From the IMG/VR virus record IMGVR_UViG_2778261562_000001: DNA of 64,000 nt; one strand, written 5' to 3'. The notes below the pieces were generated by a model, which worked only from the letters and a program-made list of their open reading frames with translations, made no database searches and had not been told where the DNA came from. The stretch is from an uncultured virus (IMG/VR IMGVR_UViG_2778261562_000001) (lineage: Duplodnaviria; Heunggongvirae; Uroviricota; Caudoviricetes). The translations under genes were made by a program, and so were the position numbers. Below, one piece after another: positions 2,617 through 61,657 of the stretch (within the stretch, counting starts at the first letter, position 1; the number at the start of each line of letters is the position of its first letter).

Positions 2617-3628
2617 TGAACGGCAAACTAAGATAAGTTTTGACCCAGTTCCGCATAAGTATTATGATGATGGCGGAATTGAATATACCTCTGTTACTAC
2701 TCTTATCGGGAAATACGCTCCCAAGTTTAATAAGAGGTATTGGAGTATGTACACTGCTCTTCGTGATGCCGGTTATAAAGTTAGAGGTGATAATAAACAA
2801 TATAAAGTTATATATGTAGATGGTATTCCTAGAAGCTTAGATTCTTTATATAAGATTACGGCTGCTGCGAATGCTGTTAAAGATGTTACTAATGAATGGA
2901 CTAGATTAACTAATGTTGCATGTAATAGAGGTAACCTTATTCATGATGGTCTTGAAACTGATATTAATGCTAGTAAAGGCGACTTAAAAGGTGAAAGTAA
3001 TAGTATCATCCAACCTCATCAAAGTCTTGAAGGTGTTCTACTAAAAATCAATACTGTTGAACAGTTAGATGATACGGGACTACAGTTTAGATACCCTGAG
3101 ATTTATAAGAGGTTGGTTTGGTATATTAGTCAAGATTGTATTATATATGCTGAAAAACGTATTTACAGTACTGCTTATCAAATAGCAGGAATGATTGACG
3201 TTCTTATAGTAAAGAGAGGTACTAATAAGTTTGCTATCCTTGATTGGAAAACTAACAAGGATAAGATGCATTTTGAAAGTGGCTATTATAAGAAGGTTAA
3301 GATAGGTGGTAAATGGGTTAAGAGTGATAATTTTATTCAAACTTTTGATGATAAGCTTCATAGTCCTATTGAGCATTTGGATAATTGTAAAGGAGTTAAG
3401 TATAGTTTACAGTTAAGCTTATATGCGTATGTAATGGAGTTATGGGGATATGAACTTGTTGGTAATGGTTTAACTATTTGTCATATTAGACCTGATATGA
3501 AACCTATCTTTATCAATTGTCATTACTATAAGAATGAGATTGCTAGTCTTCTTTTAGACCATTATGTTAAAAATGTTATTAAGTTAGAACCTGAAAAACC
3601 CAAAGTAACATTTGGAATATCCGCATGA
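2597..3628 (+). CDS. PD-(D/E)xK nuclease (phage exonuclease-like)
   Basis: Motifs SVTT, RGNLIH, AEKRIY..IAGMIDVL..ILDWKT, YSLQLSLYAY; likely start is ATG 2597 (MKVSIP) rather than 2468. Confidence 0.85.
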   Translation: MKVSIPNERQTKISFDPVPHKYYDDGGIEYTSVTTLIGKYAPKFNKRYWSMYTALRDAGYKVRGDNKQYKVIYVDGIPRSLDSLYKITAAANAVKDVTNEWTRLTNVACNRGNLIHDGLETDINASKGDLKGESNSIIQPHQSLEGVLLKINTVEQLDDTGLQFRYPEIYKRLVWYISQDCIIYAEKRIYSTAYQIAGMIDVLIVKRGTNKFAILDWKTNKDKMHFESGYYKKVKIGGKWVKSDNFIQTFDDKLHSPIEHLDNCKGVKYSLQLSLYAYVMELWGYELVGNGLTICHIRPDMKPIFINCHYYKNEIASLLLDHYVKNVIKLEPEKPKVTFGISA

Positions 3629-4083
3629 TAAATAAAGCCGTTTTTATAGATGTTGATGGTACTTTAGTTCATACGAGAAGTGGAAGAGCTTATCCTGTGG
3701 CTAGTACTGATTGGAAAGTTCGTGAAGGACTTATTAAACCATTAAAGCAATATCATAAAGACGGCTTTAAAATTATCCTTATAGCTGATAAAGCGGAAAT
3801 AGAAACTGGACTTATTACTGAACGTGAAGTTATTAGAAGGCTTGACGATATATGTGATAGAATTGTACAGTTATGTAGGTTAACTACTATGGATTTAGGG
3901 TTTATATATTCTACTAAAGAAGGATTTAATAAACGTCCTAATCCCGGTATGGCTTATGAGCTATGCCAAGAATATGAATTAGATTTAGGAGAATGTATTA
4001 TGATAGGTAAGAGTGATATGGATGTGGAGTTTTATAAACGTGCAGGTATTGGTACTTATATATCTTTTGAAAACTTATTGTAA
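3625..4083 (+). CDS. HAD-superfamily phosphatase (class IIIA; GmhB / polynucleotide 3-prime phosphatase-like)
   Basis: FIDVDGTLV motif I, KRPNPGM, MIGKSDMD..AGI. Confidence 0.8.
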   Translation: MINKAVFIDVDGTLVHTRSGRAYPVASTDWKVREGLIKPLKQYHKDGFKIILIADKAEIETGLITEREVIRRLDDICDRIVQLCRLTTMDLGFIYSTKEGFNKRPNPGMAYELCQEYELDLGECIMIGKSDMDVEFYKRAGIGTYISFENLL

Positions 4084-8708: not shown

Positions 8709-10070
8709 ATGGAAGAAGAATTTGTACCGTCAATAGACGATGTATTAGGAACAGGCGTTGGTTCAGACCATGAAGATTATTCTAGTCAGAATAATAAGCC
8801 TGATGCTGATAAGAACAAAGATGGTGAAGGTGGGAAGCCTAAACCAGATACACCTAAACCTACTCCTAAGCCTAATGAAGGCGGAGATAACAACAACAGT
8901 GGTGAAGAAGAGGAAGATGATTCTAATTTATCTAGTGAAGATAAAATTGTAAATCTTCTTAAATCTTATAACAATGTTGATGGTTTAAATGACGCTCAAA
9001 AAGGTGTACGTCAAAGACTCCTTAACTCTTATAAAGGGGAAAGCTTTGACGAAAGTGGTAATATTATAGATGCAGATGGTCAAGTTATTAAGACTGCTGC
9101 TGAGATTTATGAAAAGCTACAAGCTCCTGAAGAAGCTCCTACAGTAGATGCCAATGGTAATCAGATTGATGAAGAAGGTAATATCATTAAAACTCGTCTT
9201 GAGTTAGCTGCTGATAAATCAGTAGTTAATAAAATGCATTTAAATTCAGAATATGAATTTGTAGATGATAAAGGCGCTGTTAAGATTTACGAAGATTCTG
9301 ATGAAGGAGTTAATGAATTTGCTAATGATATAGCTAANATTAGATTACAAGAGTTTAAAGANACTTTNTTTGGACAACACCCTGTGNTAAGAGAAGTGTC
9401 TAANCATCTTCTTACAGGTGGTACTTTAGAAAACTTTGGTAATCTAGTAGATTATTCTAANATTAAAACTGAAGANTTATCTAAAGAAGATAAGCTTAGT
9501 TATATNAGAGAGTCTTTTGAAAAAAGAGGACTTAGTAAAGAGAGGGTTGCTGATAACCTTCAACGTATTAAAGATGGTAATGCTGTTGATAAAGAATTTG
9601 ATTATGCTCTTGAAGATTTAAAAGCTATTCAGAAAACTGAACAAGAAGCACGAGATGCTAAGGTTAAACAAATGACTGAGCAAAGAGCTAGAGATAATGA
9701 AGAGCAATGGCGCAAAATANAAGACACTATTAAGAAAGGTAAAATTAATCAAGTTAGTATTGATGCTAAAGACCAAGAAGGTTTTCTTGATTATATTTCT
9801 AAACCTATTAATAGTAAAGGACAGTCACAAGCTGACCTTGATAGAGGTAAAGAAGATTTAGAAGCTAAACTTCTGTTTGACTTTTTTAGATATAAAGGCT
9901 ACGACTTTGAGACCTTTATTAATAATAGAGTTGGGTCGAAAAGAGTGGAAAGTCTTCGAGAGCAATTACTTAGAAGTGCAAAGATCAAAGAAGAAGATTT
10001 CAAACAAACTAATGTAAGTAAAGGTAATAGTGAACCTAGTGCAGTTAGTATTGAGGAAATGTTAGGTTAA
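8709..10070 (+). CDS. Acidic scaffold-like capsid assembly protein
   Basis: Disordered acidic/Pro-rich N-terminus, helical remainder, located between portal and MCP as in Crassvirales. Confidence 0.6.
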   Translation: MEEEFVPSIDDVLGTGVGSDHEDYSSQNNKPDADKNKDGEGGKPKPDTPKPTPKPNEGGDNNNSGEEEEDDSNLSSEDKIVNLLKSYNNVDGLNDAQKGVRQRLLNSYKGESFDESGNIIDADGQVIKTAAEIYEKLQAPEEAPTVDANGNQIDEEGNIIKTRLELAADKSVVNKMHLNSEYEFVDDKGAVKIYEDSDEGVNEFANDIAXIRLQEFKXTXFGQHPVXREVSXHLLTGGTLENFGNLVDYSXIKTEXLSKEDKLSYXRESFEKRGLSKERVADNLQRIKDGNAVDKEFDYALEDLKAIQKTEQEARDAKVKQMTEQRARDNEEQWRKIXDTIKKGKINQVSIDAKDQEGFLDYISKPINSKGQSQADLDRGKEDLEAKLLFDFFRYKGYDFETFINNRVGSKRVESLREQLLRSAKIKEEDFKQTNVSKGNSEPSAVSIEEMLG

Positions 10071-13710: not shown

Positions 13711-14697
13711 ATGAATAGAGTTGGTGTTTTAAAAGATGTTGCTTATGGTCTAAAAGCAGGTGGCGGTACAGTAGCATCTATCAATGAAGCTGCTGATTTA
13801 GCAGCAGGTGCAATGGCAGTCTTCGGTGAAAACGGAGTATTGCTTGCTGCTGATGGTTCTAATGCTGCGGCAGCTATGGGTGATTCTAAGGAAGTTATTA
13901 TAGCTTTCGGTAGAACTAATACTCCATTACTTGTTAACGTACCACGTAATGTGAAGTATGTTAATCTTATGAACTATCGTGCTGCTGTCAAGCCTACGAT
14001 TGTTATAGGTGGACAAACTGCTGATACTGGTCTTCCTTTTGATAACGAAGGTGAAGCAAGTATTAAAGTAGTTGATAATACGCATACTAGTCGTTACGGT
14101 CTTCCCGCTATTAAAGCTAGTGTTTACAAGACTCCTTCAATGACTATTGGTCAATTGATTACTAAACTTGTAAATAAATTGAATGCTGATACTACTCTAG
14201 GTGGTGTTACTGCTGTAGCTGCAAATACCGGTGATTATTACCAAATTTCTATTACTCCTAAAGAAAATATTGCAATCAATGTCGCTTTGAGTGGTATGTT
14301 TATGAGTGGTAAAATCGAACAAACTGTAGATGCTGTTTATCCTATGGGTACAGGTTCTCAAATCAAAGAACTTGAATTTGAAGCTTCTGTAGAAATGGGT
14401 AACCAAGCTTATACAGAACATACTACCGATTGGTATAAAGATGTGTTAGAAACTAACACCGCTGCCAATTATGATGTTATTACTATTGGTTATGATGCAT
14501 GGCATCAAGGGCCAACTACTAAACGTCATGTAATGGCTAAAGCTTTACAAATTGCTGCTGTAAATGGAGCTACTGTAGATGCTGATGCTATCATGGCTAT
14601 TCTAGCAAATGTTTTCCCTAACTATGCTAGTGAAACTGAAGGTCAAGAAATCGTTGCTGACGATGGTACTGAACTTGATGGTGTAGCCGGAAATTAA
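13711..14697 (+). CDS. Putative auxiliary capsid (decoration) protein
   Basis: 328 aa, Ala/Gly/Thr-rich, MCP-like codon bias, followed by a terminator. Confidence 0.55.
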   Translation: MNRVGVLKDVAYGLKAGGGTVASINEAADLAAGAMAVFGENGVLLAADGSNAAAAMGDSKEVIIAFGRTNTPLLVNVPRNVKYVNLMNYRAAVKPTIVIGGQTADTGLPFDNEGEASIKVVDNTHTSRYGLPAIKASVYKTPSMTIGQLITKLVNKLNADTTLGGVTAVAANTGDYYQISITPKENIAINVALSGMFMSGKIEQTVDAVYPMGTGSQIKELEFEASVEMGNQAYTEHTTDWYKDVLETNTAANYDVITIGYDAWHQGPTTKRHVMAKALQIAAVNGATVDADAIMAILANVFPNYASETEGQEIVADDGTELDGVAGN

Positions 14698-14779: not shown

Positions 14780-16198
14780 ATGGCAATACAAAGAGTTTTT
14801 ACGGAATCTAAAGATGTTTATACTTTAAAGGTATTACAAGATACCCAAGTAAAACTAGAGTATGTTAGTGATTTAACTACTATTGTACTAGATAAAATGG
14901 TATATAGTGGTAACACTATTACTTTACCTACATCTAAAGATGGGTTCTACAAAATAACATTATCTGCTCCTAATAATACAGATGTTATTATAGATTTTGA
15001 AGTTGTTAATAATTTACAATTATCTGTTATTTCAGATATTTGTTCTATTCTTGTTAATACTAAATACACTTCAAAAGCTTGTAGCGTAGAATCTAAAACA
15101 GGTATAGATTTGATGAACTTCAAAAACATCATGTCTAAATTACTTGTATTGGAAACATTATGGTTTCCGAAGATTGGGGAGAACCTTACAATCTTTTTTA
15201 ATCAGTACTTAGTTAAACTTGTAGAAAAAGATAAGTTTAGATTTTATACTNATATTACTACTATTCTTAATGAAGAGTGTTCTTATGGAGATAGTAAATT
15301 AAATTCTCAATTGTTTAAAACATTCCTTATCTACTATTATATAGGTATGTATAATATAGATAAGAATATAGCAGGTAGTAATGTAGATGAGCTTGCTTAT
15401 GTAGAGGATAAATATTCTTTAAAGAAAATTGTTCCTATACTAAATGATTATTGTATTACTCTTACAGAAGCTAATACAGTATTTTCTCAAATTACTTCTG
15501 CTAATACTCCACCTACAGTTGATGATTATGAAATTGTTATTCCTGACTTTTTGCCAGGTAATCAATTTGAATACGATTTTACTGGTGATGAGTTTACTGA
15601 AAACTTTACTGATATTCAAGGTAATCTTCCTTTGAATATTAGATTTTTTGCTTTACCTGTTAGAGGTGATATAACTTTTAAAGGAAACCCTGTAACTAAA
15701 GGAACTCCTTATCCTTTTGAAGAAGTTACTGAATTTCATTATTCAGGGGTAATTGAAGTTAATGAAGATATATTTGATTTAATCATATTTCAAATTAGTG
15801 ATGATAACGTTAATGAAACTTATAGTGATATGGCAACTGTAACAATGAACAGTGGAGAGTATGTTAATAAACCTATCTCTCAATTAGGTAACCTTACTGT
15901 TACTAAGGATAATAGAACATCTACTGTGTACACTATTAACCACTTTACTACTCAACTTAACCCACCTTATGAAGACCCTGAAGGAGATTCTTTGGATGCT
16001 ATTAGAATTGATAGTTTACCAACTCAAGGTGGTACTTTAACATTGAATGGTACTGCTGTAACTATAGGACAAATTATAAGTGCTGCTGATATTAATGCTG
16101 GATTACTAGTATTTAATCCACCTAATCAGAATGCTGCTGCTAGTAGTGTATTCAGTTTCTCTGCTAGAGATACAGGTTCACTAACATTCGTAAGCTAA
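14780..16198 (+). CDS. Virion fibre-anchoring protein with two C-terminal cadherin/Ig-like domains
   Basis: Repeats NTPPTV..FTDIQG..LP.RG..FQISD and NKP..YEDPEGD..LPTQGG..FSARD. Confidence 0.65.
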   Translation: MAIQRVFTESKDVYTLKVLQDTQVKLEYVSDLTTIVLDKMVYSGNTITLPTSKDGFYKITLSAPNNTDVIIDFEVVNNLQLSVISDICSILVNTKYTSKACSVESKTGIDLMNFKNIMSKLLVLETLWFPKIGENLTIFFNQYLVKLVEKDKFRFYTXITTILNEECSYGDSKLNSQLFKTFLIYYYIGMYNIDKNIAGSNVDELAYVEDKYSLKKIVPILNDYCITLTEANTVFSQITSANTPPTVDDYEIVIPDFLPGNQFEYDFTGDEFTENFTDIQGNLPLNIRFFALPVRGDITFKGNPVTKGTPYPFEEVTEFHYSGVIEVNEDIFDLIIFQISDDNVNETYSDMATVTMNSGEYVNKPISQLGNLTVTKDNRTSTVYTINHFTTQLNPPYEDPEGDSLDAIRIDSLPTQGGTLTLNGTAVTIGQIISAADINAGLLVFNPPNQNAAASSVFSFSARDTGSLTFVS

Positions 16199-16830
16199 TG
16201 GCTACAGTAACAATGATAAACAATAGAGCTGCTATACCTCCTGTAGCAGTTCTTCGTTTTGAAGATGGTACTAAAGGAGATAAGACAATTACGGCTGCTA
16301 GCTATACTGTCTTATTAGATGGTAGTGCTAGTTACGATGTTGATGGTCCTATTTTATCTTATCAATGGGAGGAACAAATTAATTCGGGTGCATGGAATAT
16401 ATTTAATTCTAGTACTGAAAACAAAGCTTTTAGAATTATAAGAAATGAAGCATCCTATAAATACAGAGTCAGAGTTCGTGATAACTCTAATTTGTCTGCT
16501 GTATCTAATATACTTACAGTTAATTTAAATCATCCTGTTACAAATACTATTATAGCTAGAATTAATAATGATTCAAATAACGCTGTAGTAAACTCTAATG
16601 GATTTGCTTTTGAATTAGATGGAACAGGAAGTACAACTAGTAATACTAATATTGTCACTTATCAATGGACAGTAATAAGTGCTACTACTAATAATTACAA
16701 AATTCAAAACGCATCAGGTAGTGTCTCCAATCTTCTTTTTACAGGGGAATGTACTATAGATGTTAGACTTAAAGTTATTGATAATTTAGGCTATAGTGAT
16801 ACTGTAGATGTTCAAGTTATAAATTCGTAA
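16198..16830 (+). CDS. Tandem PKD/Ig-like domain protein
   Basis: LDGSASYDVDGPILSYQW and LDGTGS...IVTYQW motifs; starts MATVTMINN. Confidence 0.75.
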   Translation: MATVTMINNRAAIPPVAVLRFEDGTKGDKTITAASYTVLLDGSASYDVDGPILSYQWEEQINSGAWNIFNSSTENKAFRIIRNEASYKYRVRVRDNSNLSAVSNILTVNLNHPVTNTIIARINNDSNNAVVNSNGFAFELDGTGSTTSNTNIVTYQWTVISATTNNYKIQNASGSVSNLLFTGECTIDVRLKVIDNLGYSDTVDVQVINS

Positions 16831-16831
16831 T

Positions 16832-18106
16832 ATGGCAACGGTTACAATGATAAATAATGCTAATACTGATGGTTGGATTAATCTAACTACTTTTAGCAAT
16901 AATAGTAATTTTAAAGAAGGAGTAGCTCATTCTTTACGTCTAAAAACTATTGAAGGAGAAATTACTGTAGATTGGGGTGATGGATTTGTAGGTACTTATG
17001 CATCTAGTGATAATCTTATTACTCATACAATGCTTCAAGAATCGGAATTGATTAGATTTAAATCTAGTCATGGTTTACCTGACTTTACTCATGTAGAAAT
17101 ACGTTATTTTGCTTTTTCTTATGAAGTATTACCTTGTACTACTTTTTCACCTTTAGTCAATCTTGAGGTTTTAATTATAAACTCTTTTAAATTAGAAGGA
17201 GATGCAAACGATTTACCATCTACTTTAAAAGATTTATATGGAAGTGTAGCTTTAAAAGGGGATTTATTTAATGATTTGCCTAATCTTGAAAGAGTAGGTT
17301 TAAGAGGGTATGATACAGGTTTAACTGTTGACTTAAATAACTGTCCTAATAATCTTATAGAACTATTTGTTAACGATAATTGTTTTATTACTGGTCAACT
17401 TATAAATCTTCCTACTACTGTAATAGGATTACAACTTTCTACTACTGATGCCAGTTCTGATGTAATAGGGAGTTTATCTACTTTACATGAAGGGTTATTA
17501 TTAGCTTTATTTTTAGATAATGTAGGTATATCAGGAGATATTAACGATATTCCTGATAGTCTTGTATTAATTGCTAGTGGAATATCCACTATTTATGGTG
17601 ATGTAGGAACTATTACATCTACTGAACTTAAATCGATTCAAACTTCAGATAGTGGGTCTTTTTTAGAAGGGGATTTAAATACTCTTCCTGTTAATGTAAA
17701 TATCATATTTCTTAATGCAAGTAGTTCAGATATAACAGGAAACGTTACTACGATGTTAAACAGAATTGTTCCTAGTGAAATTAATTTATCTGAAATAAAA
17801 AGTAGTTATACTGTTACTCCACCTATTGTACAATTATATATTAAAGGTGATGCTGTTATGAGTATATCTTCAGGATTATCTATAAATCAACCTACTGCTA
17901 AATATAATGTACATTTAGAAGGAGGAAATTCAACTATTACAGCAGGTCAACTAGACCAATTCTTAATAGATTTGGATAATAGTAACTTTATTAAACAAGG
18001 TTCAGTTTTTACTCTTAAAGGAAATATACCACCAAGAACTGCTACATCCGATGCTGCTTATGCTAGTTTAATTGCAGATGGTGTACTAATTTATTTAAAT
18101 ACTTAA
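16832..18106 (+). CDS. Beta-solenoid/LRR-like putative receptor-binding protein
   Basis: VDWGDG PKD-like motif, then about 22-aa repeats of G(D/N)LxxLPxxL type; starts MATVTMINN. Confidence 0.65.
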   Translation: MATVTMINNANTDGWINLTTFSNNSNFKEGVAHSLRLKTIEGEITVDWGDGFVGTYASSDNLITHTMLQESELIRFKSSHGLPDFTHVEIRYFAFSYEVLPCTTFSPLVNLEVLIINSFKLEGDANDLPSTLKDLYGSVALKGDLFNDLPNLERVGLRGYDTGLTVDLNNCPNNLIELFVNDNCFITGQLINLPTTVIGLQLSTTDASSDVIGSLSTLHEGLLLALFLDNVGISGDINDIPDSLVLIASGISTIYGDVGTITSTELKSIQTSDSGSFLEGDLNTLPVNVNIIFLNASSSDITGNVTTMLNRIVPSEINLSEIKSSYTVTPPIVQLYIKGDAVMSISSGLSINQPTAKYNVHLEGGNSTITAGQLDQFLIDLDNSNFIKQGSVFTLKGNIPPRTATSDAAYASLIADGVLIYLNT

Positions 18107-18109
18107 AAA

Positions 18110-20632
18110 ATGGTCAAAAAACTAGATAACGGTGATTATTCAGGATTGTCTTCAGATGTTAAACCTAAAGATGCTGCTTTTGGTGCTGAGTTTTTTGAAT
18201 TTGATACTAATAAAACTTTTATTAAAAAACCCAGTGGTTGGCAAGAAGGTGATGGTGGAGCGGGTACTCCCGGTGCAAAGGGAGATGACGGTGATTCAGC
18301 TTATGAAGTAGCTGTTAGTGAAGGTTTTGTTGGAGACGAAAGCGCATGGCTCCTTTCTTTAAAGGGAGAAAAAGGTGACAAAGGCGATAAAGGTGATACA
18401 GGAGATGTCGGTCCTCAAGGTACTCAAGGTGAAACTGGAGAACAAGGTCCTCAAGGGCCTGCTGGTACTAATGGTTTAGGTTGGACAGGTGGTAGTTATG
18501 ATGAAGAAACAGGAGCTATTACTTTTGCATCTAATCAAGGTTTAGGATTTGTTACAGGAGATTTAAGACCTGAAATTACTCCTAAAGCTCCTACTAATGG
18601 TATAGTAAATAATACTGATAATACTTTTTCTTTTACTCCTAATCCAGATTATGCTTTATCTGAACATGAATATAGAGTAAATGAAGGTACATGGAATACT
18701 GTTGAAAGTACTGTAATATCTGTTGGAGCAGTTACTGTTCCTATTGGAGGTATAGAAGTTAGAGTTAAAAGTGGTGCTAACAATAGAAATGCTTCTCCTA
18801 TTTTATCTAATTCAAAAGCAATTGATTGGTATAATACTAATGCATCTTTTGTAGCTGATTTTGATAATGATAGATATATTTTAAATGGAGTAGAAGGAGA
18901 TAAAGCTACTTTAGTAGACCCTTATAGAATAGATCCTCAAGGAGCTACAGGTTCTCCTAAAGATAATGCTTTAAAATTTCCTGCTGCTGCAATTGGTTGG
19001 ACAGGTAGTGAAGTTAGTTATATACTAGACTTTACTATACCTGCTAATGCTGATTTAGCTGGAAATGATTGGGTAGCGGAATCAGGAAATCTTACTAGAA
19101 ACCATCGTATAAGCTCTATTATTACTGGTACATCTGTATTAAGTAATCAGGTTTATGTAGGTGGAGATGCTGGGTTTCAAGATGGTTCTACAAATAACGC
19201 AGCTGTAGCTATAAATGATACTTTAAGAGTTATCATAGCTGTAGATGCTAATGGGGTTGTATCTAAGTCTAATAATGAAATGGTTGATATTTTAGATGGA
19301 CTTGTTCCAACTGATTTTACCCATTTAGCAGTAGGTATGACTATGACAGAATTTCAACAAATACCTGATTTAGTCATAAACAAAATACAAGTATTTAATT
19401 ATAAAATAGAAGTTGAAGGATTGTCAGGGGATGATTTATTTGATACTTCTATTTATACTGAAGTAGATTTTGAAGATACTTTTGAAGAATTAAGTATAAG
19501 AACTAATGGACCTAGTGGATATGCTACTGGTGTAGGTACTTGGACTCCTAGACCTTCTTATACCGATAATGAAACTGAACCTAAAGGTTATGCAGGTGGA
19601 AGTTTATTTATAGTAGACCCTACTTATGATTGGGGTAATGGGTATGAAGTAATGGCAAGTGATGGAGATATTCTTTCTATGAAAACAGAGAGAGTTTCTT
19701 CAGCAGGAATTGGAGGTCAATTAGATAATAATCCTAATACTTCTCAACCTTATGATTGGGTTGGAGGTTATTTAAGTACTAAACATTCTTATACTTTTAA
19801 ATCTCCTTGTTATGTAGAAGCTAGAGTTAAAGTACCTGATGGTAAAGGTATGTGGTCTAGTTTTTGGGCATACAATAATTATGATGGTCATAGAGAGATT
19901 GATATTATTGAGCAATGGACTAATAACATGGAAGTTTATGGTGTTGCTCAACATTATTGGGATGGTACTGAAATAGTGCATGAACAAAAAATGGTTTTAG
20001 CAGATTTAGATTTATCTGCTGATTATCATAATTATGGTTTAGTATGGGCTGATGGAAAAATGACTTTTCTACTTGATGGTAAAGTAGTAGGTATTATTTA
20101 TGAAACAGAAGATATGGCTAATAGAAGCTTATATCTTATTTTAAGTACTAATATTGGTGGAAATGCCGGAGCACCAGACGGTACTACTCCTGATATAAAT
20201 GAAATGCTTGTTGATTGGGTAAGAGTTAAAACTGTTGATACTAGTTCTAATCCTAAAACTCCTGCAAGTAAAGTTGTTTATAATAACTCTATTTCCAATG
20301 CCAATACTGAAAATGTGCAAGGGGCTTTGGACATATTGTTCAATTATTCTCCTAAGGAAGGAACAGGAGCTATTATAGATTTAAGTAATTTTAGAGGATA
20401 TTATATGAATATGACTTCTGCTAATTCTTCTGAAAGTTATGATACTGTGAATGAGGTATTAGGAGGATGGGCCAAAATACTTATAAATGCTGCAAATGAA
20501 CCTTCTGTTACTGATTCTACAGATACAGCAGCTACTAAAATTAAAGGTGCAGACTTTATTGCTGATACTGATATGTATATGGTAGTAGAATATAATGGTG
20601 TAAGAGTAGAATACTTTTTCTTAGAAATATGA
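18110..20632 (+). CDS. Collagen-containing tail fibre with a GH16 glycoside hydrolase domain
   Basis: Gly-X-Y repeats, SAYEVAV..GF.G...WL.SLKG motif, GH16 motifs YVEARVK, GMWSSFW, EIDIIE (19895-19912), YHNYGLVW, VDWVRV. Confidence 0.8.
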   Translation: MVKKLDNGDYSGLSSDVKPKDAAFGAEFFEFDTNKTFIKKPSGWQEGDGGAGTPGAKGDDGDSAYEVAVSEGFVGDESAWLLSLKGEKGDKGDKGDTGDVGPQGTQGETGEQGPQGPAGTNGLGWTGGSYDEETGAITFASNQGLGFVTGDLRPEITPKAPTNGIVNNTDNTFSFTPNPDYALSEHEYRVNEGTWNTVESTVISVGAVTVPIGGIEVRVKSGANNRNASPILSNSKAIDWYNTNASFVADFDNDRYILNGVEGDKATLVDPYRIDPQGATGSPKDNALKFPAAAIGWTGSEVSYILDFTIPANADLAGNDWVAESGNLTRNHRISSIITGTSVLSNQVYVGGDAGFQDGSTNNAAVAINDTLRVIIAVDANGVVSKSNNEMVDILDGLVPTDFTHLAVGMTMTEFQQIPDLVINKIQVFNYKIEVEGLSGDDLFDTSIYTEVDFEDTFEELSIRTNGPSGYATGVGTWTPRPSYTDNETEPKGYAGGSLFIVDPTYDWGNGYEVMASDGDILSMKTERVSSAGIGGQLDNNPNTSQPYDWVGGYLSTKHSYTFKSPCYVEARVKVPDGKGMWSSFWAYNNYDGHREIDIIEQWTNNMEVYGVAQHYWDGTEIVHEQKMVLADLDLSADYHNYGLVWADGKMTFLLDGKVVGIIYETEDMANRSLYLILSTNIGGNAGAPDGTTPDINEMLVDWVRVKTVDTSSNPKTPASKVVYNNSISNANTENVQGALDILFNYSPKEGTGAIIDLSNFRGYYMNMTSANSSESYDTVNEVLGGWAKILINAANEPSVTDSTDTAATKIKGADFIADTDMYMVVEYNGVRVEYFFLEI

Positions 20633-24262: not shown

Positions 24263-25934
24263 ATTATTTATAATATTAATAAGTATAACAGGATTTTGTC
24301 AAGAACAGAATCCTGTTCTTAGAGGTATTATAGTTCAACAAAAGGATAACGTAAATGTTAATCCTGATTTATATTACACACATCCTGTAAAAGCCTTTCC
24401 AACTGCTCAAGGCGGAGGTTCTGAAGCTACAGGTGGAAGAGGATTAACTCTTGGAAGAGTTACTTCTACTTCTACAGGAGTTACAGGTTCTTTTAATGCT
24501 GTTAGAGCTTGTTATGAAGGAAGCCTTAGATATTTATTAGAAGAAGCTAATGTTGGACCTATCATTTTTGCTGTATCAGGTAAATGGAACGTTTCAGAGT
24601 TTACTTTTTATTATGATAATAATGATAATATTCGTAATAAATTTATAGTAGGTTCTACTGCTCCTAGACCGGGTGTTATTATTTATGGTGGTAGATGGAG
24701 ATTTGTTGAAAATTCAGCAGGTAATTTTATAATGAGAGGTATTACTCATTTATATGGTACTACTGCTGTATTTAGAACTCATTCAGGTATAGGTTTTTCT
24801 GAAGCTATTGATGGGCCTGTAATTTACTCTGACTGTACTACTGGATGGGCTTGGGATCAAGCTGCTGACATATCAGGTAAAAAAGTAACTAAACAAAGAG
24901 TTCTTCATATTGAATGTGGTGACGGACATAATACTGGCGGTATTATTGGAGAAAATACTTCAACAGTTAATCGTGATGCAGATAGTAGAGGTAGACTAGT
25001 ATCCAGTCATCATAACCTTTATAGTTTAATAAGTCATAGATTTGATAATGCTGCTGGAGAAGATGAAGGACGAGTTGATATAATTAATAATGTAGCTTAT
25101 AATTATCAATCTAGAATGGTTAGAATTAACTGTGACCCTAATTTAAATCATATCAATAATATGTATATGAGAGGCCCTAATAGTCCTAGTAGTTTAGGTA
25201 ATAATATTAATAAATGGAGCCCTTATAAAGACGGTAATTGTAGTAATTGTAGTGACCCTTCTTGTGATGGTGTAAATAGATGGTGTACTAATGAATTTTG
25301 TGATTTAGACCCTAAAATCTATACAGCAGGNAATATAGTATCAGGNTTNTTTACTAATNCTTTNGCTAGTAATAAACCNCTTTGGCAAGTNTATCTTTCA
25401 GCTAACGGATTTGTACAATATGACCCATTACCTGATTCTATGTTTGCTACTACAATGCATGATTTAGGATATAATCCTATAACTATTGATACAGCAAATG
25501 AAGCTAAAATAGATTTAGTTGATAATGAAAATGTAGGAGCTAGATATTATGCTTCTTCTACAGGTGAACCTATTAAATATTTTCCTGATTTTATTCATGG
25601 ATATATTGAAGATGCTCAAAATGGAACTACTTTAGCTCGTAGAAGTGCTCCCGGAAGTGATGATATTTCTGGTTATGTAGTGCCTACTTTAGATTCTGCT
25701 ACATCAGCTTATACTGATAGTGATTTTGATGGTATGCCTGATGCTTGGGAAACTACTCATGGATTAAATCCTAATGATAGAACAGATGCGTTAATAACTA
25801 CTAGTAAAGTTTTTAATTTTGGAACTTTGGATAAACCTTATTTAAAGCCTGAAGGTATGGAGAATAGAGAAGTTTATTTTGCTTATATTCATGGAGACTA
25901 CAATCAAAACATGACTAAATATTATAATCAATGA
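24246..25934 (+). CDS. Pectate-lyase-like (PL1-type, Bacteroidota) beta-helix protein with signal peptide
   Basis: KAFPTAQGGG..ATGGRG, GSLRY, IIFAVSG, STAP.PG, HHNL, NNVAYNY, C-terminal DSDFDGMPDAWETTHGLNPND. Confidence 0.8.
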   Translation: MLRLIKLFIILISITGFCQEQNPVLRGIIVQQKDNVNVNPDLYYTHPVKAFPTAQGGGSEATGGRGLTLGRVTSTSTGVTGSFNAVRACYEGSLRYLLEEANVGPIIFAVSGKWNVSEFTFYYDNNDNIRNKFIVGSTAPRPGVIIYGGRWRFVENSAGNFIMRGITHLYGTTAVFRTHSGIGFSEAIDGPVIYSDCTTGWAWDQAADISGKKVTKQRVLHIECGDGHNTGGIIGENTSTVNRDADSRGRLVSSHHNLYSLISHRFDNAAGEDEGRVDIINNVAYNYQSRMVRINCDPNLNHINNMYMRGPNSPSSLGNNINKWSPYKDGNCSNCSDPSCDGVNRWCTNEFCDLDPKIYTAXNIVSXXFTNXXASNKXLWQXYLSANGFVQYDPLPDSMFATTMHDLGYNPITIDTANEAKIDLVDNENVGARYYASSTGEPIKYFPDFIHGYIEDAQNGTTLARRSAPGSDDISGYVVPTLDSATSAYTDSDFDGMPDAWETTHGLNPNDRTDALITTSKVFNFGTLDKPYLKPEGMENREVYFAYIHGDYNQNMTKYYNQ

Positions 25935-30787: not shown

Positions 30788-31440
30788 TGAATACTCTTAA
30801 TAAAATAGCTGAAAACATTGCTTTTGCTTTTGGTGAACAATATAATTATACTTTAAAAGAAAGTATTAAAAATCATGTTGTTGATTATAGAGCTTTATTG
30901 CTTAGACAGGATTTAGAAAATAACTTCTTATCTACTACTCATTTACTTGAGTCTTTTTGTGTTCAAATGGAAGTTGTAGATAGTTCTGAATGTAAAGAAA
31001 TTACTTCTAATAAATATGTACTTAGAAGTGTACAACCTATACCTAGAACAATTCGTCTTAAAAATCAAGGTAATTTAGGTTTTACTTTTGTAGGAAGTCC
31101 TGATAGGTATATTAGNTATGATTATGCTAANAAAGANACTTTAAANTGGAGACATGCTTTACCNTTTCAATNACCTACTAAAAAGTATTATGANATNATT
31201 AATGACCATCTATTTATTTTAAACTCTATTAAACCTTGTAAAGTTCTTTTAGAAGGCCCAATAGAAGACCCTAGAGATATAGATGATTGTAATTATCCTG
31301 ACAGATTTAAGGATGATATTCCTTTTAATTGTCCTGCCGATATTGTAGCTAAAATAACCGATATTGTTAAAAGAAACTACGTACCTCAACTTCTAAAAGA
31401 TGATGCAGAAGTTAAAATAGAAGCAGATGATAGACCTTAA
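30787..31440 (+). CDS. Putative tail ring protein
   Basis: MNTLNKIA start, EGPIEDP..FNCP motif, synteny with crAss tail genes. Confidence 0.55.
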   Translation: MNTLNKIAENIAFAFGEQYNYTLKESIKNHVVDYRALLLRQDLENNFLSTTHLLESFCVQMEVVDSSECKEITSNKYVLRSVQPIPRTIRLKNQGNLGFTFVGSPDRYIXYDYAXKXTLXWRHALXFQXPTKKYYXXINDHLFILNSIKPCKVLLEGPIEDPRDIDDCNYPDRFKDDIPFNCPADIVAKITDIVKRNYVPQLLKDDAEVKIEADDRP

Positions 31441-56125: not shown

Positions 56126-56162
56126 TCTATTCTATATTCGATAAAGATTTGTATCTTTATAT

Positions 56163-56200
56163 AAAATTTAGAGATATGGAAAATTTAGAGATATGGAAAA
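56163..56200 (+). repeat. 17-bp tandem duplication at the HNH gene start
   Basis: AAAATTTAGAGATATGG twice (56163-56179, 56180-56196) plus AAAA. Confidence 0.85.
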
Positions 56201-56718
56201 GTGTTAAAAATTATGAAACTTTATATGAAGTCAGTAATTTAGGTAGAGTTAGAAGTTTAGACAGAACTATAATTCGTAAAGATGGTATTAAAAGTAAAAG
56301 TTATGGTAAACTTCTTAAACCAGGTTTAAGTAGTAATGGTTATTTAACAGTTAATTTATCTTTAAATGGTAAGGTTAAAAATAGAACAATACATACTTTA
56401 GTAGGAGAAGCTTTTTTAAATTATATTAAAAAAGGATATACACAAGTTATAGATCATAAAGATAATAACAAATTAAATAATAGATTAGATAATTTAAAAA
56501 TCTTATCTAATCGAGAAAATACTTCAAAAGAAATAGCTAGAGGAGAATCTCAATATGTAGGAGTACATAAGCTTAAAAGTACAAGTAAAGGTATTAGAAA
56601 AGTTAAGCCTATAAACAAACCTTGGGTAGCTAGTATTTATAAAAACAAAAAGAAAAAAGTTATAGGAAGATTTGAAACAGAATATGAAGCTCATTTAGCT
56701 TATCAAGCTTGTTTATAA
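56176..56718 (+). CDS. Free-standing NUMOD4-HNH-AP2 homing endonuclease
   Basis: EIWKSVKNYE.LYEVSNLGRVRS (NUMOD4), IDHKDNNKLNNRLDNL (HNH), YVGV..WVASI..GRFETEYEAHLAY (AP2-like). Confidence 0.9.
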   Translation: MENLEIWKSVKNYETLYEVSNLGRVRSLDRTIIRKDGIKSKSYGKLLKPGLSSNGYLTVNLSLNGKVKNRTIHTLVGEAFLNYIKKGYTQVIDHKDNNKLNNRLDNLKILSNRENTSKEIARGESQYVGVHKLKSTSKGIRKVKPINKPWVASIYKNKKKKVIGRFETEYEAHLAYQACL

Positions 56719-59582: not shown

Positions 59583-59760
59583 AATTACGATAATTTACGG
59601 TTTCTATAACCCCACATTTAGGACACTCAACTTCCTGTATATTAAACATAGTGGTTCTAGGTGTAAAATAATGACCGCACTTACAAGTAAACTTCCAAAC
59701 ATTAGTCCTTAAATCCCTAGAATTTCCACCATGTCTAATAGTAAAATATGTAGTTTTCAT
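59563..59760 (-). CDS. Small zinc-ribbon protein
   Basis: CKCGH and CPKCG motifs. Confidence 0.65.
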   Translation of the reverse strand: MKTTYFTIRHGGNSRDLRTNVWKFTCKCGHYFTPRTTMFNIQEVECPKCGVIETVNYRNYESRKQ

Positions 59761-60746
59761 TACTTTTTAATTAAACGACTATCTTTTTTATTTTCTCCAA
59801 TAAACATTTTACGATACTGTGTAAATCCTCTAAAGTTACCTGACCAACCATCTAAACTTTCTATACGGTCAGCAGCATAACTACAGTTATTTAAATCTTC
59901 TTCATCAAGGATATAATATTCTTCACTATCCATAGCTCTAGCACAGTGTTCAAAAGGAGACCAATGACCCATAGAAGCTAATCTATCATGAAGTTTTATA
60001 TCTGCTTCAAAATCATTAGTACCATCAAAATTCATGTAAGATACTCTAGCACATCTAGCAGTAGCTACTTTAATTAAAGAATCTTCTACTGCTGCTTTAA
60101 CTGCTATTTCATTATATCTATCAGGATTTCCATTACTATCATCATAATAAAGAGATAAAGCTTCTTCTAAATCATCGCCAAATGGTATATGCCATTCCCC
60201 CTGTGATAAAGAAACTGGTGTAGATGCGTTAGCTGCATCTAACATACATTCAGCAAGTTTAGCTATATGTATTTCAGCTTGAGGATGATGCCTTAAAGCA
60301 TAAAAGTTTTCCCATTCAGTAGCAGTAGTAATAGCAGTATGCCAACCCCAAGGTTCTAATAATCTATTACAGATTTGTTTAGTAACCTTATTATTACGGT
60401 TAAGCATAATAGCTTCTTCTAGTACAGATGTTCTAGCTCTTAACCAACTACTAACAGCTAAATCATGGTTTCTACCTTCTAAATACTTAGTACCCTGCAT
60501 ACCTTTATGGTCTTCTTGAAACCTTATAGGGACAAAAGGGTCATTTTGCACTTTTTCAAACATCTTTTTAAAAGGTATAGCTCTACTACTAGCACTATTC
60601 TTACTAAGCATTCTATGAGTATTAAACTCAGCAAGAACTATTCTAGGAAACGTAATTACAAAAGTAGTTATACGATTACCTCTAACATCTTTAGAATCTG
60701 CTATAATAGTAGCATTAATCTCATTGTACTTGTGGTTTTCTAACAT
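59760..60746 (-). CDS. thyX: FAD-dependent thymidylate synthase (phage-type ThyX)
   Basis: EFNTHRMLSKNSASSRAIP, KQICNRLLEP, LRHHPQA, ARCARVSY, HWSPFEH. Confidence 0.85.
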   Translation of the reverse strand: MLENHKYNEINATIIADSKDVRGNRITTFVITFPRIVLAEFNTHRMLSKNSASSRAIPFKKMFEKVQNDPFVPIRFQEDHKGMQGTKYLEGRNHDLAVSSWLRARTSVLEEAIMLNRNNKVTKQICNRLLEPWGWHTAITTATEWENFYALRHHPQAEIHIAKLAECMLDAANASTPVSLSQGEWHIPFGDDLEEALSLYYDDSNGNPDRYNEIAVKAAVEDSLIKVATARCARVSYMNFDGTNDFEADIKLHDRLASMGHWSPFEHCARAMDSEEYYILDEEDLNNCSYAADRIESLDGWSGNFRGFTQYRKMFIGENKKDSRLIKK

Positions 60747-61657
60747 TTAATTAATTTTAAATCGATTAGTATTTCTTTTACTTTTTCAATAAGTTCTTCC
60801 ATAGAACCATCATTATCTATTACATAATCAAAAGTATGATTATCCAATTCTGTTTCAGAGATATGAGTAAGCTTTTGAAAAGTCTTTATATCATAACTCT
60901 CTAACCATTTAAGAAATTTAAAAGGTTTGTACATTGCCGAAGCTTCTGCAATTTTCCAAAGATTAGGAAAACGAAGGAAAATAGGTCTGTTAATTCTAAT
61001 AGTAACACCTTCTCTAACTCTAACAGAAGCATCTTCATTAAAAAATCTTAAATCAGTAATAATCCAATTAGAAAATCTTACTTCATAATTAACAGAAAGC
61101 ATACCGTCATTGACAATAATATTAGAATCTCCTAAATATCTATCTTCTTTATAATTATTAAAAGTGGTATTAATCCAAATATTAGGGTGAATAATATTAC
61201 GACCACAATCTGTACCAATTAAAGTGGTAAGTTTCCTAGGAGTGAGTTTAACTAAAGTACATTTAATATCCTCATTATCTTCAAACTCTTTTGGATTATA
61301 CTCATTATAAGGTACTCTTTTAACAATTTCAGTATAAGAATGTACTTGCCAATATTCATAATACCACCACTCTTTTCCAAGTTCTTTGTTTTTAAAGTCT
61401 TCATCTTCTAATTGTTCTCTAGTACAACCTATAAGAATACATACAATATTTTTTACACCATCAGCAAATTTTTTAATTTCAAATACTTGCTCTCTTTTAG
61501 GTACACCTATTCTTTGCCAATCTAAATATTCCTGATACAAAGTTTGTTCAGTAGTATAACCATTTCTAACAATATCATTGTAAGAAAATAAGAAATTTAT
61601 AATTTTACCAACTTCATCTTTACCAGTATTAATTTTACCACTTATTGCTATTAGCAT
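60740..61657 (-). CDS. Deoxynucleoside monophosphate kinase
   Basis: ISGKINTGKD P-loop, FAD..K, TPRKL..IGTDCGR, ITDLRF.NE, HISETELD. Confidence 0.88.
   Translation of the reverse strand: MLIAISGKINTGKDEVGKIINFLFSYNDIVRNGYTTEQTLYQEYLDWQRIGVPKREQVFEIKKFADGVKNIVCILIGCTREQLEDEDFKNKELGKEWWYYEYWQVHSYTEIVKRVPYNEYNPKEFEDNEDIKCTLVKLTPRKLTTLIGTDCGRNIIHPNIWINTTFNNYKEDRYLGDSNIIVNDGMLSVNYEVRFSNWIITDLRFFNEDASVRVREGVTIRINRPIFLRFPNLWKIAEASAMYKPFKFLKWLESYDIKTFQKLTHISETELDNHTFDYVIDNDGSMEELIEKVKEILIDLKLIKC

Follow-up and report, generated by a model that had tools for sequence, protein, structure and literature searches.

In chaperone-usher pili (Fim, Pap, Caf1, Csu), each subunit is an immunoglobulin (Ig)-type domain which lacks its last strand and is completed by the N-terminal extension of the next subunit. 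Type V pili of the Bacteroidota also rely on strand exchange, with a C-terminal donor that acts after proteolytic removal of an N-terminal strand, and TasA fibres of Bacillus are reportedly built by lending a strand to the incomplete sandwich of a neighbour. We were interested in a fibre gene cluster of an uncultured virus (IMG/VR record IMGVR_UViG_2778261562_000001), contained in a 64,000-nucleotide stretch of DNA which is called the window below. Three consecutive plus-strand genes of this cluster, gp14780, gp16198 and gp16832, seem to have borders which lie one strand off the domain borders. On the evidence of their sequences, strand complementation in trans probably links the three fibre proteins, gp16198 and gp16832 being alternative tips on gp14780.

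Two phage structures come close to this arrangement. In the Lactococcus phage Tuc2009, as its adhesion device is described, a C-terminal hairpin of 25 BppU residues completes the sheet of the Ig-like (titin-like) domain of BppA (PMC4742702). Both cases concern a phage adhesion device in which strands of one protein complete, or would complete, the Ig-like sheet of another, and in Tuc2009 an accessory carbohydrate-binding module is attached in this way. Compared by description only, Tuc2009 uses a C-terminal hairpin and does so in that one phage, whereas the present system would use a single N-terminal strand, a family-wide cut, several tips per socket and chains of several tiers. In the published account of PhicrAss001, the N-termini of fibres dock in pockets of the hub and the capsid, and the distal fibre-to-fibre joints were left unmodelled as too flexible (PMC10172136). 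In PhicrAss001, a member of the same viral order, gp22, gp21 and gp29 are likewise attached through short N-terminal segments, although the pockets which that account describes are in the hub or capsid and not in a fibre repeat. A strand-level joint, if true, would explain how separate fibre genes of crassviruses give rise to one appendage. A literature search of open full text, with subscription-only papers outside its scope, found no phage fibre described as having a conserved split joint at the level of a strand. The principle is already known from pili and from the Tuc2009 joint; the new part would be its family-wide, single-strand, N-terminal version in crAss-like phage fibres.

The likeness to chaperone-usher pili is that the acceptor is putatively of Ig type without its last strand, that the donor is a short N-terminal extension of alternating hydrophobic residues, and that subunit order follows from plugging. 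FimH/FimG, Caf1, CfaE/B and the self-complemented CsuA/B are among the weak Foldseek and VIA matches listed for the acceptor model. In contrast to those pili, the phage fibre would be assembled in the cytoplasm of the infected cell, its domain is cadherin-like and not a pilin, its chains would be heteromeric with unrelated tips, and polymerisation is hypothetical. Among 37 window proteins scanned (6 plus 31, the latter being all open reading frames (ORFs) of at least 150 amino acids), Pfam detected neither a PapD-like chaperone nor an usher. Given this and the non-pilin domain, the fibre would work like a donor-strand system without being a member of the class. With type V pili it shares the strand-lending fibre principle, in the host's own phylum, but the phage donor is N-terminal and nothing suggests proteolysis.

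In the mechanism that we propose, the terminal cadherin-like (Ig-type) repeat of gp14780 would have strands A to F and no final strand G. The N-terminal strand of a tip protein, MATVTMINN, would insert next to strand F of this open repeat and complete the sandwich in trans. The usual N-x-P-type linker would then lead from the donor strand into the tip's own domains, and the joined polypeptides would behave as one continuous bead chain. In an Ig-type tandem array, the strand just before strand A cannot reach the G position of its own domain, so the complementation would have to take place between chains. Separate anchor copies would carry separate tips; with a single socket for two plugs, or for three in a close relative, the tips on different copies would differ. 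We infer that the strand physically inserts, that the tips compete and that gp14780 is the virion-attached part, the last of these only from g083 of Cellulophaga phage phi14:2, which its annotation, based on mass spectrometry, calls a virion protein.

The proposed anchor and strand acceptor, gp14780 (472 amino acids, 14780 to 16198), consists of an N-terminal domain and two cadherin-like repeats; all features given here are on the plus strand. Its N-terminal region of about 234 amino acids (14780 to 15481, borders approximate) is assigned to no family or fold. The first 240 residues gave no usable Atlas match by features, and structure comparison gave template modelling (TM) scores of at most 0.42; homologous regions are present in the database protein P0101 and in ORF 3269-4705 of L007, a 57%-identical relative. 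The whole protein matches no Pfam family at E <= 0.1, while residues 335-472 match positions 120-256 of 256 of phrog_22884, 'virion structural protein', at E 4.6e-31.

Repeat 1 is complete in cis. Its strands A to F (15503 to 15829) are placed by an AlphaFold2 (AF2) model and a weak match to the hidden Markov model (HMM) of the repeat family; they end in FQISDDNVNETYSD, and MATVTMN follows as the last (G) strand (15830 to 15850; AF2 strand 118-124, pattern match). Repeat 2 (15851 to 16195), the terminal one, is one strand short by HMM and AF2 and is the proposed acceptor socket. The protein ends in FSARDTGSLTFVS and a stop codon, which overlaps the start codon of gp16198 in the sequence TAATG (16196 to 16200, read from the sequence).

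The AF2 monomer model covers the last 238 residues of gp14780 at a predicted local distance difference test (pLDDT) score of 72, and displays two beta-sandwich units. In repeat 1, strands are found at model residues 16-20, 28-32, 50-57, 62-66, 76-78, 85-90 and 98-107, and the final strand is at 118-124 (ATVTMNS). Repeat 2 has no equivalent of this last strand: in the model it stops after the strand equivalent to 98-107 and a short loop. The top rows of a Foldseek search are cadherin EC arrays (E 1.7e-4, probability 0.99, low TM). In VIA, single EC repeats of cadherins align with model residues from about 5 to 127, a stretch which includes strand 118-124. The assignment of the inter-repeat strand to the preceding repeat comes from this model, the VIA alignments and the Pfam profile. 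When the family profile was searched against PDB sequences, nothing matched at E <= 1.

The repeat belongs to a large family. A profile built from six members was searched against 1.84 billion representatives and retrieved 4619 proteins (E <= 1e-3), the best of which are 1,000-7,500 residues long with up to 41 repeats. The giant proteins examined (E down to 0) carry the Pfam families Cadherin_4, Big_9, Cadherin_5 and Cadherin_3, and the gp14780 repeat is thus homologous at profile level to bacterial cadherin-like repeat proteins. Three phage-type relatives exceed the Cadherin_3 cut-off of 25.5 bits (P0113 with 41.5, P0111 with 37.5 and P0130 with 28.0). Like the repeats of the giant adhesins (PF16184 Cadherin_3, PF17803 Cadherin_4, PF17892 Cadherin_5, PF17963 Big_9), the phage repeats follow the pattern of F strand, loop, G strand and N-x-P linker. 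The adhesins consist of complete repeats in one polypeptide, whereas in the phage proteins the chain breaks off with the terminal repeat still lacking its last strand.

This cut point is conserved. Repeat 2 of gp14780, the only window ORF which bears the family domain in a family HMM scan, matches HMM positions 3-114 of 114, up to its last residue; repeat 1 matches weakly (residues 272-343, independent E 0.015). The same alignment column ends seven of seven aligned homologues. The terminal-repeat HMM was also scanned over 82 loci (phi14:2 and 81 stretches from IMG/VR, among which some overlap or are nearly identical), and 77 of 79 distinct complete repeat-bearing ORFs end at most one residue from the HMM end. 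Since the HMM was built from cut proteins, outside references were needed: internal junctions, the Cadherin_3 model, and a comparison of large with small proteins. At 29 distinct internal repeat junctions, 7-11 residues, mostly 9, lie between the cut point and the next repeat. In the terminal repeats of relatives, the match to Pfam's independent Cadherin_3 model breaks off at position 93 of 106 and leaves 6-7 residues. Of the large bacterial-type proteins, 124 of 129 run at least 12 residues past their last repeat, while in 23 of 24 small phage-type proteins the protein end falls at -1 to 0 relative to the end of the repeat. HMM, internal junctions, AF2 and Cadherin_3 all describe an acceptor of putative Ig-type fold without its C-terminal strand. 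The strand-short ending is a family trait and not an error, and the homologues are not simply fused forms of a gene that happens to be interrupted here.

The two exceptions among the 79 (L073 3971-6117 and L022 3629-4971) are arrays apparently interrupted in mid-repeat. In both, the next ORF carries the array on (MAYILKQSDFVTETTPIY.. and MNNLIKPGDYITFTKDIF..), and the interruptions may be a frameshift or an assembly error.

A donor would be expected on the next gene product, and the proteins encoded directly after open repeats do carry an N-terminal extension with alternating hydrophobic residues. In the relatives, 51 of 68 distinct N-termini directly after an open repeat fit ^M[AG].[FVILMYT].[FVILM], compared with 29 of 297 after other ORFs, an enrichment of about 8-fold (Fisher p 6e-27, with sequences that are not independent). 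Across 69 distinct donors, hydrophobic residues occupy positions 4, 6 and 8 in 80, 83 and 59% of cases, and positions 5, 7 and 9 in 26, 13 and 12%, an alternation which would be expected of a strand with one buried face. Position 2 is A, G or S in 57 of the 69; such a small residue would allow removal of the initiator methionine, given the specificity of the enzyme. The proteins behind these starts are 46 to 1327 amino acids long and include unrelated folds. The donor peptide is followed by an N-x-P-P-type linker which matches internal junctions. Those junctions read L-[S/A]-T-G-I-I-T-M in relatives, and fused three-repeat proteins read ...FT[S/A/L]-GG[I/V][M/I]T[I/M]... where other genomes have a stop and M-A-T-...; because fused and internal junctions carry a matching strand at this place, the donor peptide is homologous to the internal last strand.

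The conserved peptide might instead dock in some other virion socket such as the tail hub or baseplate, with the truncated repeat stable alone or binding something else. PhicrAss001 has docking of this kind, as reported for residues 1-26 of gp22 in the tail hub and for head-fibre N-termini in hexon pockets (PMC10172136). Donor-type N-termini also occur on genes which do not directly follow an acceptor, namely the 29 of 297 controls, and AF2 builds repeat 2 with fair confidence without the strand. We consider this rather unlikely nevertheless: it gives no reason for the acceptor to be cut before its last strand in 77 of 79 cases, nor for the peptide to be homologous to the strand after every internal repeat with the same N-x-P-P-type linker next to it. 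The enrichment directly after open repeats and the one-nucleotide stop/start overlap of 22 of 68 junctions also argue against it.

The same pairing is seen within the window. MATVTM is encoded at 15830, inside gp14780, and at 16198 and 16832, which are two gene starts; a six-frame scan of the window for M[AG]T[VIF][TS][MIVL] finds those three places only, and the DNA pattern ATGGCNACNGTNACNATG has 3 matches compared with a mean of 0.00 in 100 shuffles. Both gp16198 and gp16832 start with MATVTMINN (16198 to 16224 and 16832 to 16858). Their gene-start copies differ at 4 of 27 nucleotides, every difference being synonymous, and the internal copy differs from each of them by 2 synonymous changes in the first 18 nucleotides. 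In a simulation with about 5.3 synonymous sites among 24 bases, the probability that 4 random changes are all synonymous was 0.00086. As the copies differ only synonymously, the peptide is conserved and not the DNA. The initial annotation had described these three copies and their synonymous differences, and also a first repeat followed by MATVTMN, a protein which stops before the equivalent strand, and two next genes which begin with MATVTMINN; the six-frame scan and codon comparison bear out the former, and the latter reads as it was described.

A repeated sequence in front of exchangeable genes could also be a joint for recombination at DNA level, used for swapping tip cassettes, with the peptide as a by-product. 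The mosaic tip genes, which vary in number and kind behind the same start peptide, would suit this. The DNA shared by the three copies is, however, 18 bases broken by four degenerate positions, which makes it a poor substrate for homologous exchange, and the synonymous differences are a signature of selection on the peptide. The 40 nucleotides upstream of the three copies are unrelated to one another. We regard recombination as the sole explanation as very improbable, and the two kinds of joint are not exclusive, for a plug shared by the tips would make it viable to swap cassettes.

The synonymous changes bear on fission as well. Arrays may have been cut by stop codons, with the leftover strand and the shortened domain tolerated in proteins which are independent of each other. 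Fused and split forms of the same array both exist, and the giant bacterial proteins have up to 41 repeats per chain. A neutral remnant should decay, but the cut point and strand pattern are kept between proteins that are about 30% identical, and the strand is kept before folds as unrelated as PKD, leucine-rich repeat (LRR)-like and mini-proteins of 46 amino acids. With all donor-copy changes in the window synonymous, and cuts at the 82 loci never at the true domain border after the strand, a fossil of fission seems improbable.

The TAATG at the first junction could be taken to mean that the genes are joined in translation, by frameshift or readthrough, into one polypeptide with no joint between chains. 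The overlap of one nucleotide is the commonest spacing in the relatives, at 22 of 68 distinct junctions, and the g083/g082 junction of phi14:2 reads TAATG too. Spacings in relatives nonetheless run from -16 to +85 nucleotides in all frames. At the window's first junction, an in-frame stop lies 11 codons before the ATG of the next gene and the sequence contains no visible slippery run, and at the second junction, with a gap of one nucleotide, gp16832 comes after a protein with a complete C-terminal PKD domain. A fusion of this kind is hardly credible and was rejected on these grounds: the upstream in-frame stop, the lack of a slippery run, the variable spacings and the complete PKD domain before gp16832.

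Several observations weigh against strand complementation as the best description of the locus. The initial annotation had called the two repeats of gp14780 similar, which stands for fold and pattern but not for sequence: they are alike in predicted strand order and motif and barely in sequence, and BLASTP detects no similarity between them. The window's own repeats are below every Pfam cut-off; searched singly, repeat 2 reaches 15.3 bits on Cadherin_4, under the cut-off of 25.1, and repeat 1 matches nothing. Even with the strand absent, the C-terminal half of repeat 2 is modelled by AF2 at pLDDT 78-93, with no sign of instability. The VIA scores to EC repeats (Z 6.2-7.0, root-mean-square deviation 3.3-3.7 over about 99 residues, no row at Z >= 8) are in the range below 8 which may reflect a common arrangement only. 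The 'tail 0' of the terminal repeats is partly circular, as the HMM was built from proteins ending at the cut point, a concern to which the internal junctions and the Pfam model are only an indirect answer. The p-value for the donor motif is overstated because the loci, many of them close relatives, were dereplicated by exact peptide identity only. The motif is missed by 17 of the 68 N-termini, about 6 of which are not strand-like (MVSCIIKH, MNKTIEWL, MKKQFIGI and MSSNISKI among them), while several of the misses still are (MLYTITN, MAGTITIKV, MSKYTINIT). Of the 29 controls which fit, at least two resemble membrane segments, and many are evidently further donors, on two-repeat adaptors or extra tips. 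Taken together, the comparative evidence strongly supports the proposal of the initial annotation, a putative Ig-type domain without its last strand, which the next gene products would supply as interchangeable tips. The truncated-repeat and N-strand pairing which it suggested looking for in related phages was found, with 77 of 79 ends and 51 of 68 starts.

The first proposed tip, gp16198 (210 amino acids, 16198 to 16830), consists of the putative donor strand, a linker and two PKD domains. The PKD assignment comes from PF22352 (62.9 bits with a cut-off of 27, E 2.9e-17, two stretches) and PF18911 (32.9 bits with a cut-off of 27, E 7e-8), and the match starts at residue 27-28, beyond the donor peptide. 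Its homologue in L007 (4705-5379) starts with MATVTINTG. The second, gp16832 (424 amino acids, 16832 to 18106), is predicted to have the donor strand, a small beta domain and an LRR-like solenoid, and matches no Pfam family. Its AF2 model is of low confidence, with mean pLDDT 63, and has repeated strand and short-helix units at 113-250; Foldseek gives no match at E <= 0.001, and the matches listed are almost all LRR proteins (best E 1.4e-3, TM 0.29-0.38). The initial annotation had contrasted a PKD pair with an LRR-like solenoid in otherwise unrelated proteins: the PKD domains hold, and so does the lack of relation, for by BLASTP the two have nine N-terminal residues in common and nothing else, while 'LRR-like' depends on the low-confidence model.

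In its monomer model, gp16832 is unstructured over residues 1-12 (pLDDT below 50, no secondary structure), and in gp16198 the donor comes before the PKD match, as would be expected of a segment which folds only on its partner. M1, A2, V4, T5 and N8 of gp16832 are invariant across four aligned homologues. Searches for relatives of the two tips retrieved only proteins that are 98-99% identical, and the N-termini are comparable only with L007, which has two paralogues of gp16832. With one acceptor and two donors in the window, and a complete PKD domain at the end of gp16198, the tips would be alternative occupants of a single socket.

The architectures of other loci fit this. Behind its one anchor, L007 encodes three donors, of which one is a PKD pair and two are LRR-like, and their starts (MATVTINTG, MALVTINNT and MALVTINNY) track the phage's internal strand MAQVTIN; in the window, the start MATVTMI likewise tracks the internal MATVTMN. 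Tip genes are mosaic among relatives, varying in number and kind behind the same start peptide. At three-tier loci, the gene order mirrors the chain order. L039 encodes an anchor of 335 amino acids with the end ...SMIWVS, then a two-repeat protein of 246 amino acids whose start is MLYTLTN and whose end is open once more, then a protein of 128 amino acids with the start MGVMTLF; L044 has the same build with a one-repeat protein of 122 amino acids in the middle. One-repeat genes of 122-125 amino acids with both plug and socket stand alone in L032/L037, L044/L047 and L057.

The initial annotation had also suggested an internal start at ATG 15830, which would give a self-polymerising subunit of 122 amino acids. 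The ORF from this ATG to the gp14780 stop does have that length. The methionine of the internal strand is kept in some relatives only and is leucine or another residue elsewhere. Shine-Dalgarno signals are not expected in hosts of this type. The internal start and the polymerising subunit are unsupported in this phage, though relatives have such a module as a gene.

A broader reading would make the split cadherin repeat a general plug-and-socket system of marine crAss-like phages. Anchors, adaptors of one or two repeats with a plug as well as a socket, and tips of any fold would be chained in gene order, giving programmable fibre length and mixed tips; subunits of 122-125 amino acids, or the product from 15830, would polymerise head to tail without chaperone or usher; and mini-proteins of 44-55 amino acids would be temporary caps or strand chaperones displaced by strand exchange. 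As a joint claim this is doubtful. The mini-proteins are encoded by donor-only ORFs of 44-55 amino acids directly after open-ended anchors, in phi14:2 (g082, L001 4014-4148), L016, L030, L034 and L046. Their starts read MAIFNII.., MAILNIT.., MALFNIT.. and MGLLTIQ.., and this donor-type start is their sole recognisable feature; the products are possible caps for the open repeat. In phi14:2, the ATG which overlaps the g083 stop (TAATG) would give a product of 44 amino acids, four residues shorter than the annotated g082.

The donor-strand reading is a prediction, of interest to phage structural biology. If it is true, one anchor would display alternative receptor-binding tips, with mixed host recognition within one burst, and tip genes would be exchangeable between phages with attachment kept. 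It also gives a rule for annotation: where a repeat lacks its last strand and M-A-x-F-x-I-x-I comes next, the two fibre proteins concerned are predicted to be binding partners. For laboratory host-range studies, it suggests a small natural connector for putting foreign binding domains on phage particles.

The window is an uncultured marine crAss-like phage with a host of Bacteroidota type. Hallmark virion genes of Crassvirales type are present: it encodes a terminase (PHROG E 5e-110), a portal (2e-97) and a major head protein (1e-80), and the crassvirus tail ring proteins 2 and 1 are recognised by Pfam as CrAss_Ring_2 (61.2 bits) and CrAss_Ring_1 (43.8 bits), with a cut-off of 27 each. The sole named phage with a gp14780 relative is phi14:2, a seawater isolate of the Crassvirales. 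Its homologues g083 and g080 are annotated as virion structural proteins by tandem mass spectrometry, and their neighbours as 'tail protein' and pectate lyase. The fibre cluster is within a block of virion genes, with head genes upstream and a collagen-plus-GH16 fibre protein of 840 amino acids adjoining.

That protein (18110-20632) combines a stretch of collagen-like triple helix with a glycoside hydrolase domain of family GH16 (62 bits in Pfam), and it matches many tail-fibre families of PHROG. Its N-terminus (..SSDVKPKDAAFGAEFFEFDT..) resembles those of L007 ORFs 8033 and 8341 (..SSD[V/I]KP..AP.....F.E.DT..), and the resemblance suggests that the fibre cluster has another conserved module for N-terminal attachment, of a different kind. 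In the window and in L007 alike, the anchor gene is immediately preceded by the gene of a conserved protein of 328 amino acids (window 13711-14697; L007 2211-3173). Both copies begin with MNR[V/I]GVLKDVAYGLKAGGG and match neither Pfam nor PHROG.

The window is 31% G+C and contains 66 scattered N characters, with clusters at 1116-1364, 9338-9506, 25331-25391, 31116-31197 and elsewhere; the clusters suggest polymorphic or masked positions in an assembled population. The N at 15251 gives an X at residue 158 of gp14780, where the database protein P0050 reads asparagine (N), with two other residues different. A single ORF of 4951 amino acids at 41270-56125 matches no Pfam family at E <= 0.001. Genes of nucleotide metabolism flank the virion block: a PNK3P/HAD-type phosphatase at 3625-4083, and a ThyX-type thymidylate synthase (Thy1) and a deoxynucleotide monophosphate kinase-like protein at 59760-60746 and 60740-61657. 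A gene of homing-endonuclease type with NUMOD4 and HNH_3 (56149-56718) ends the long forward gene block, directly before the strand switch.

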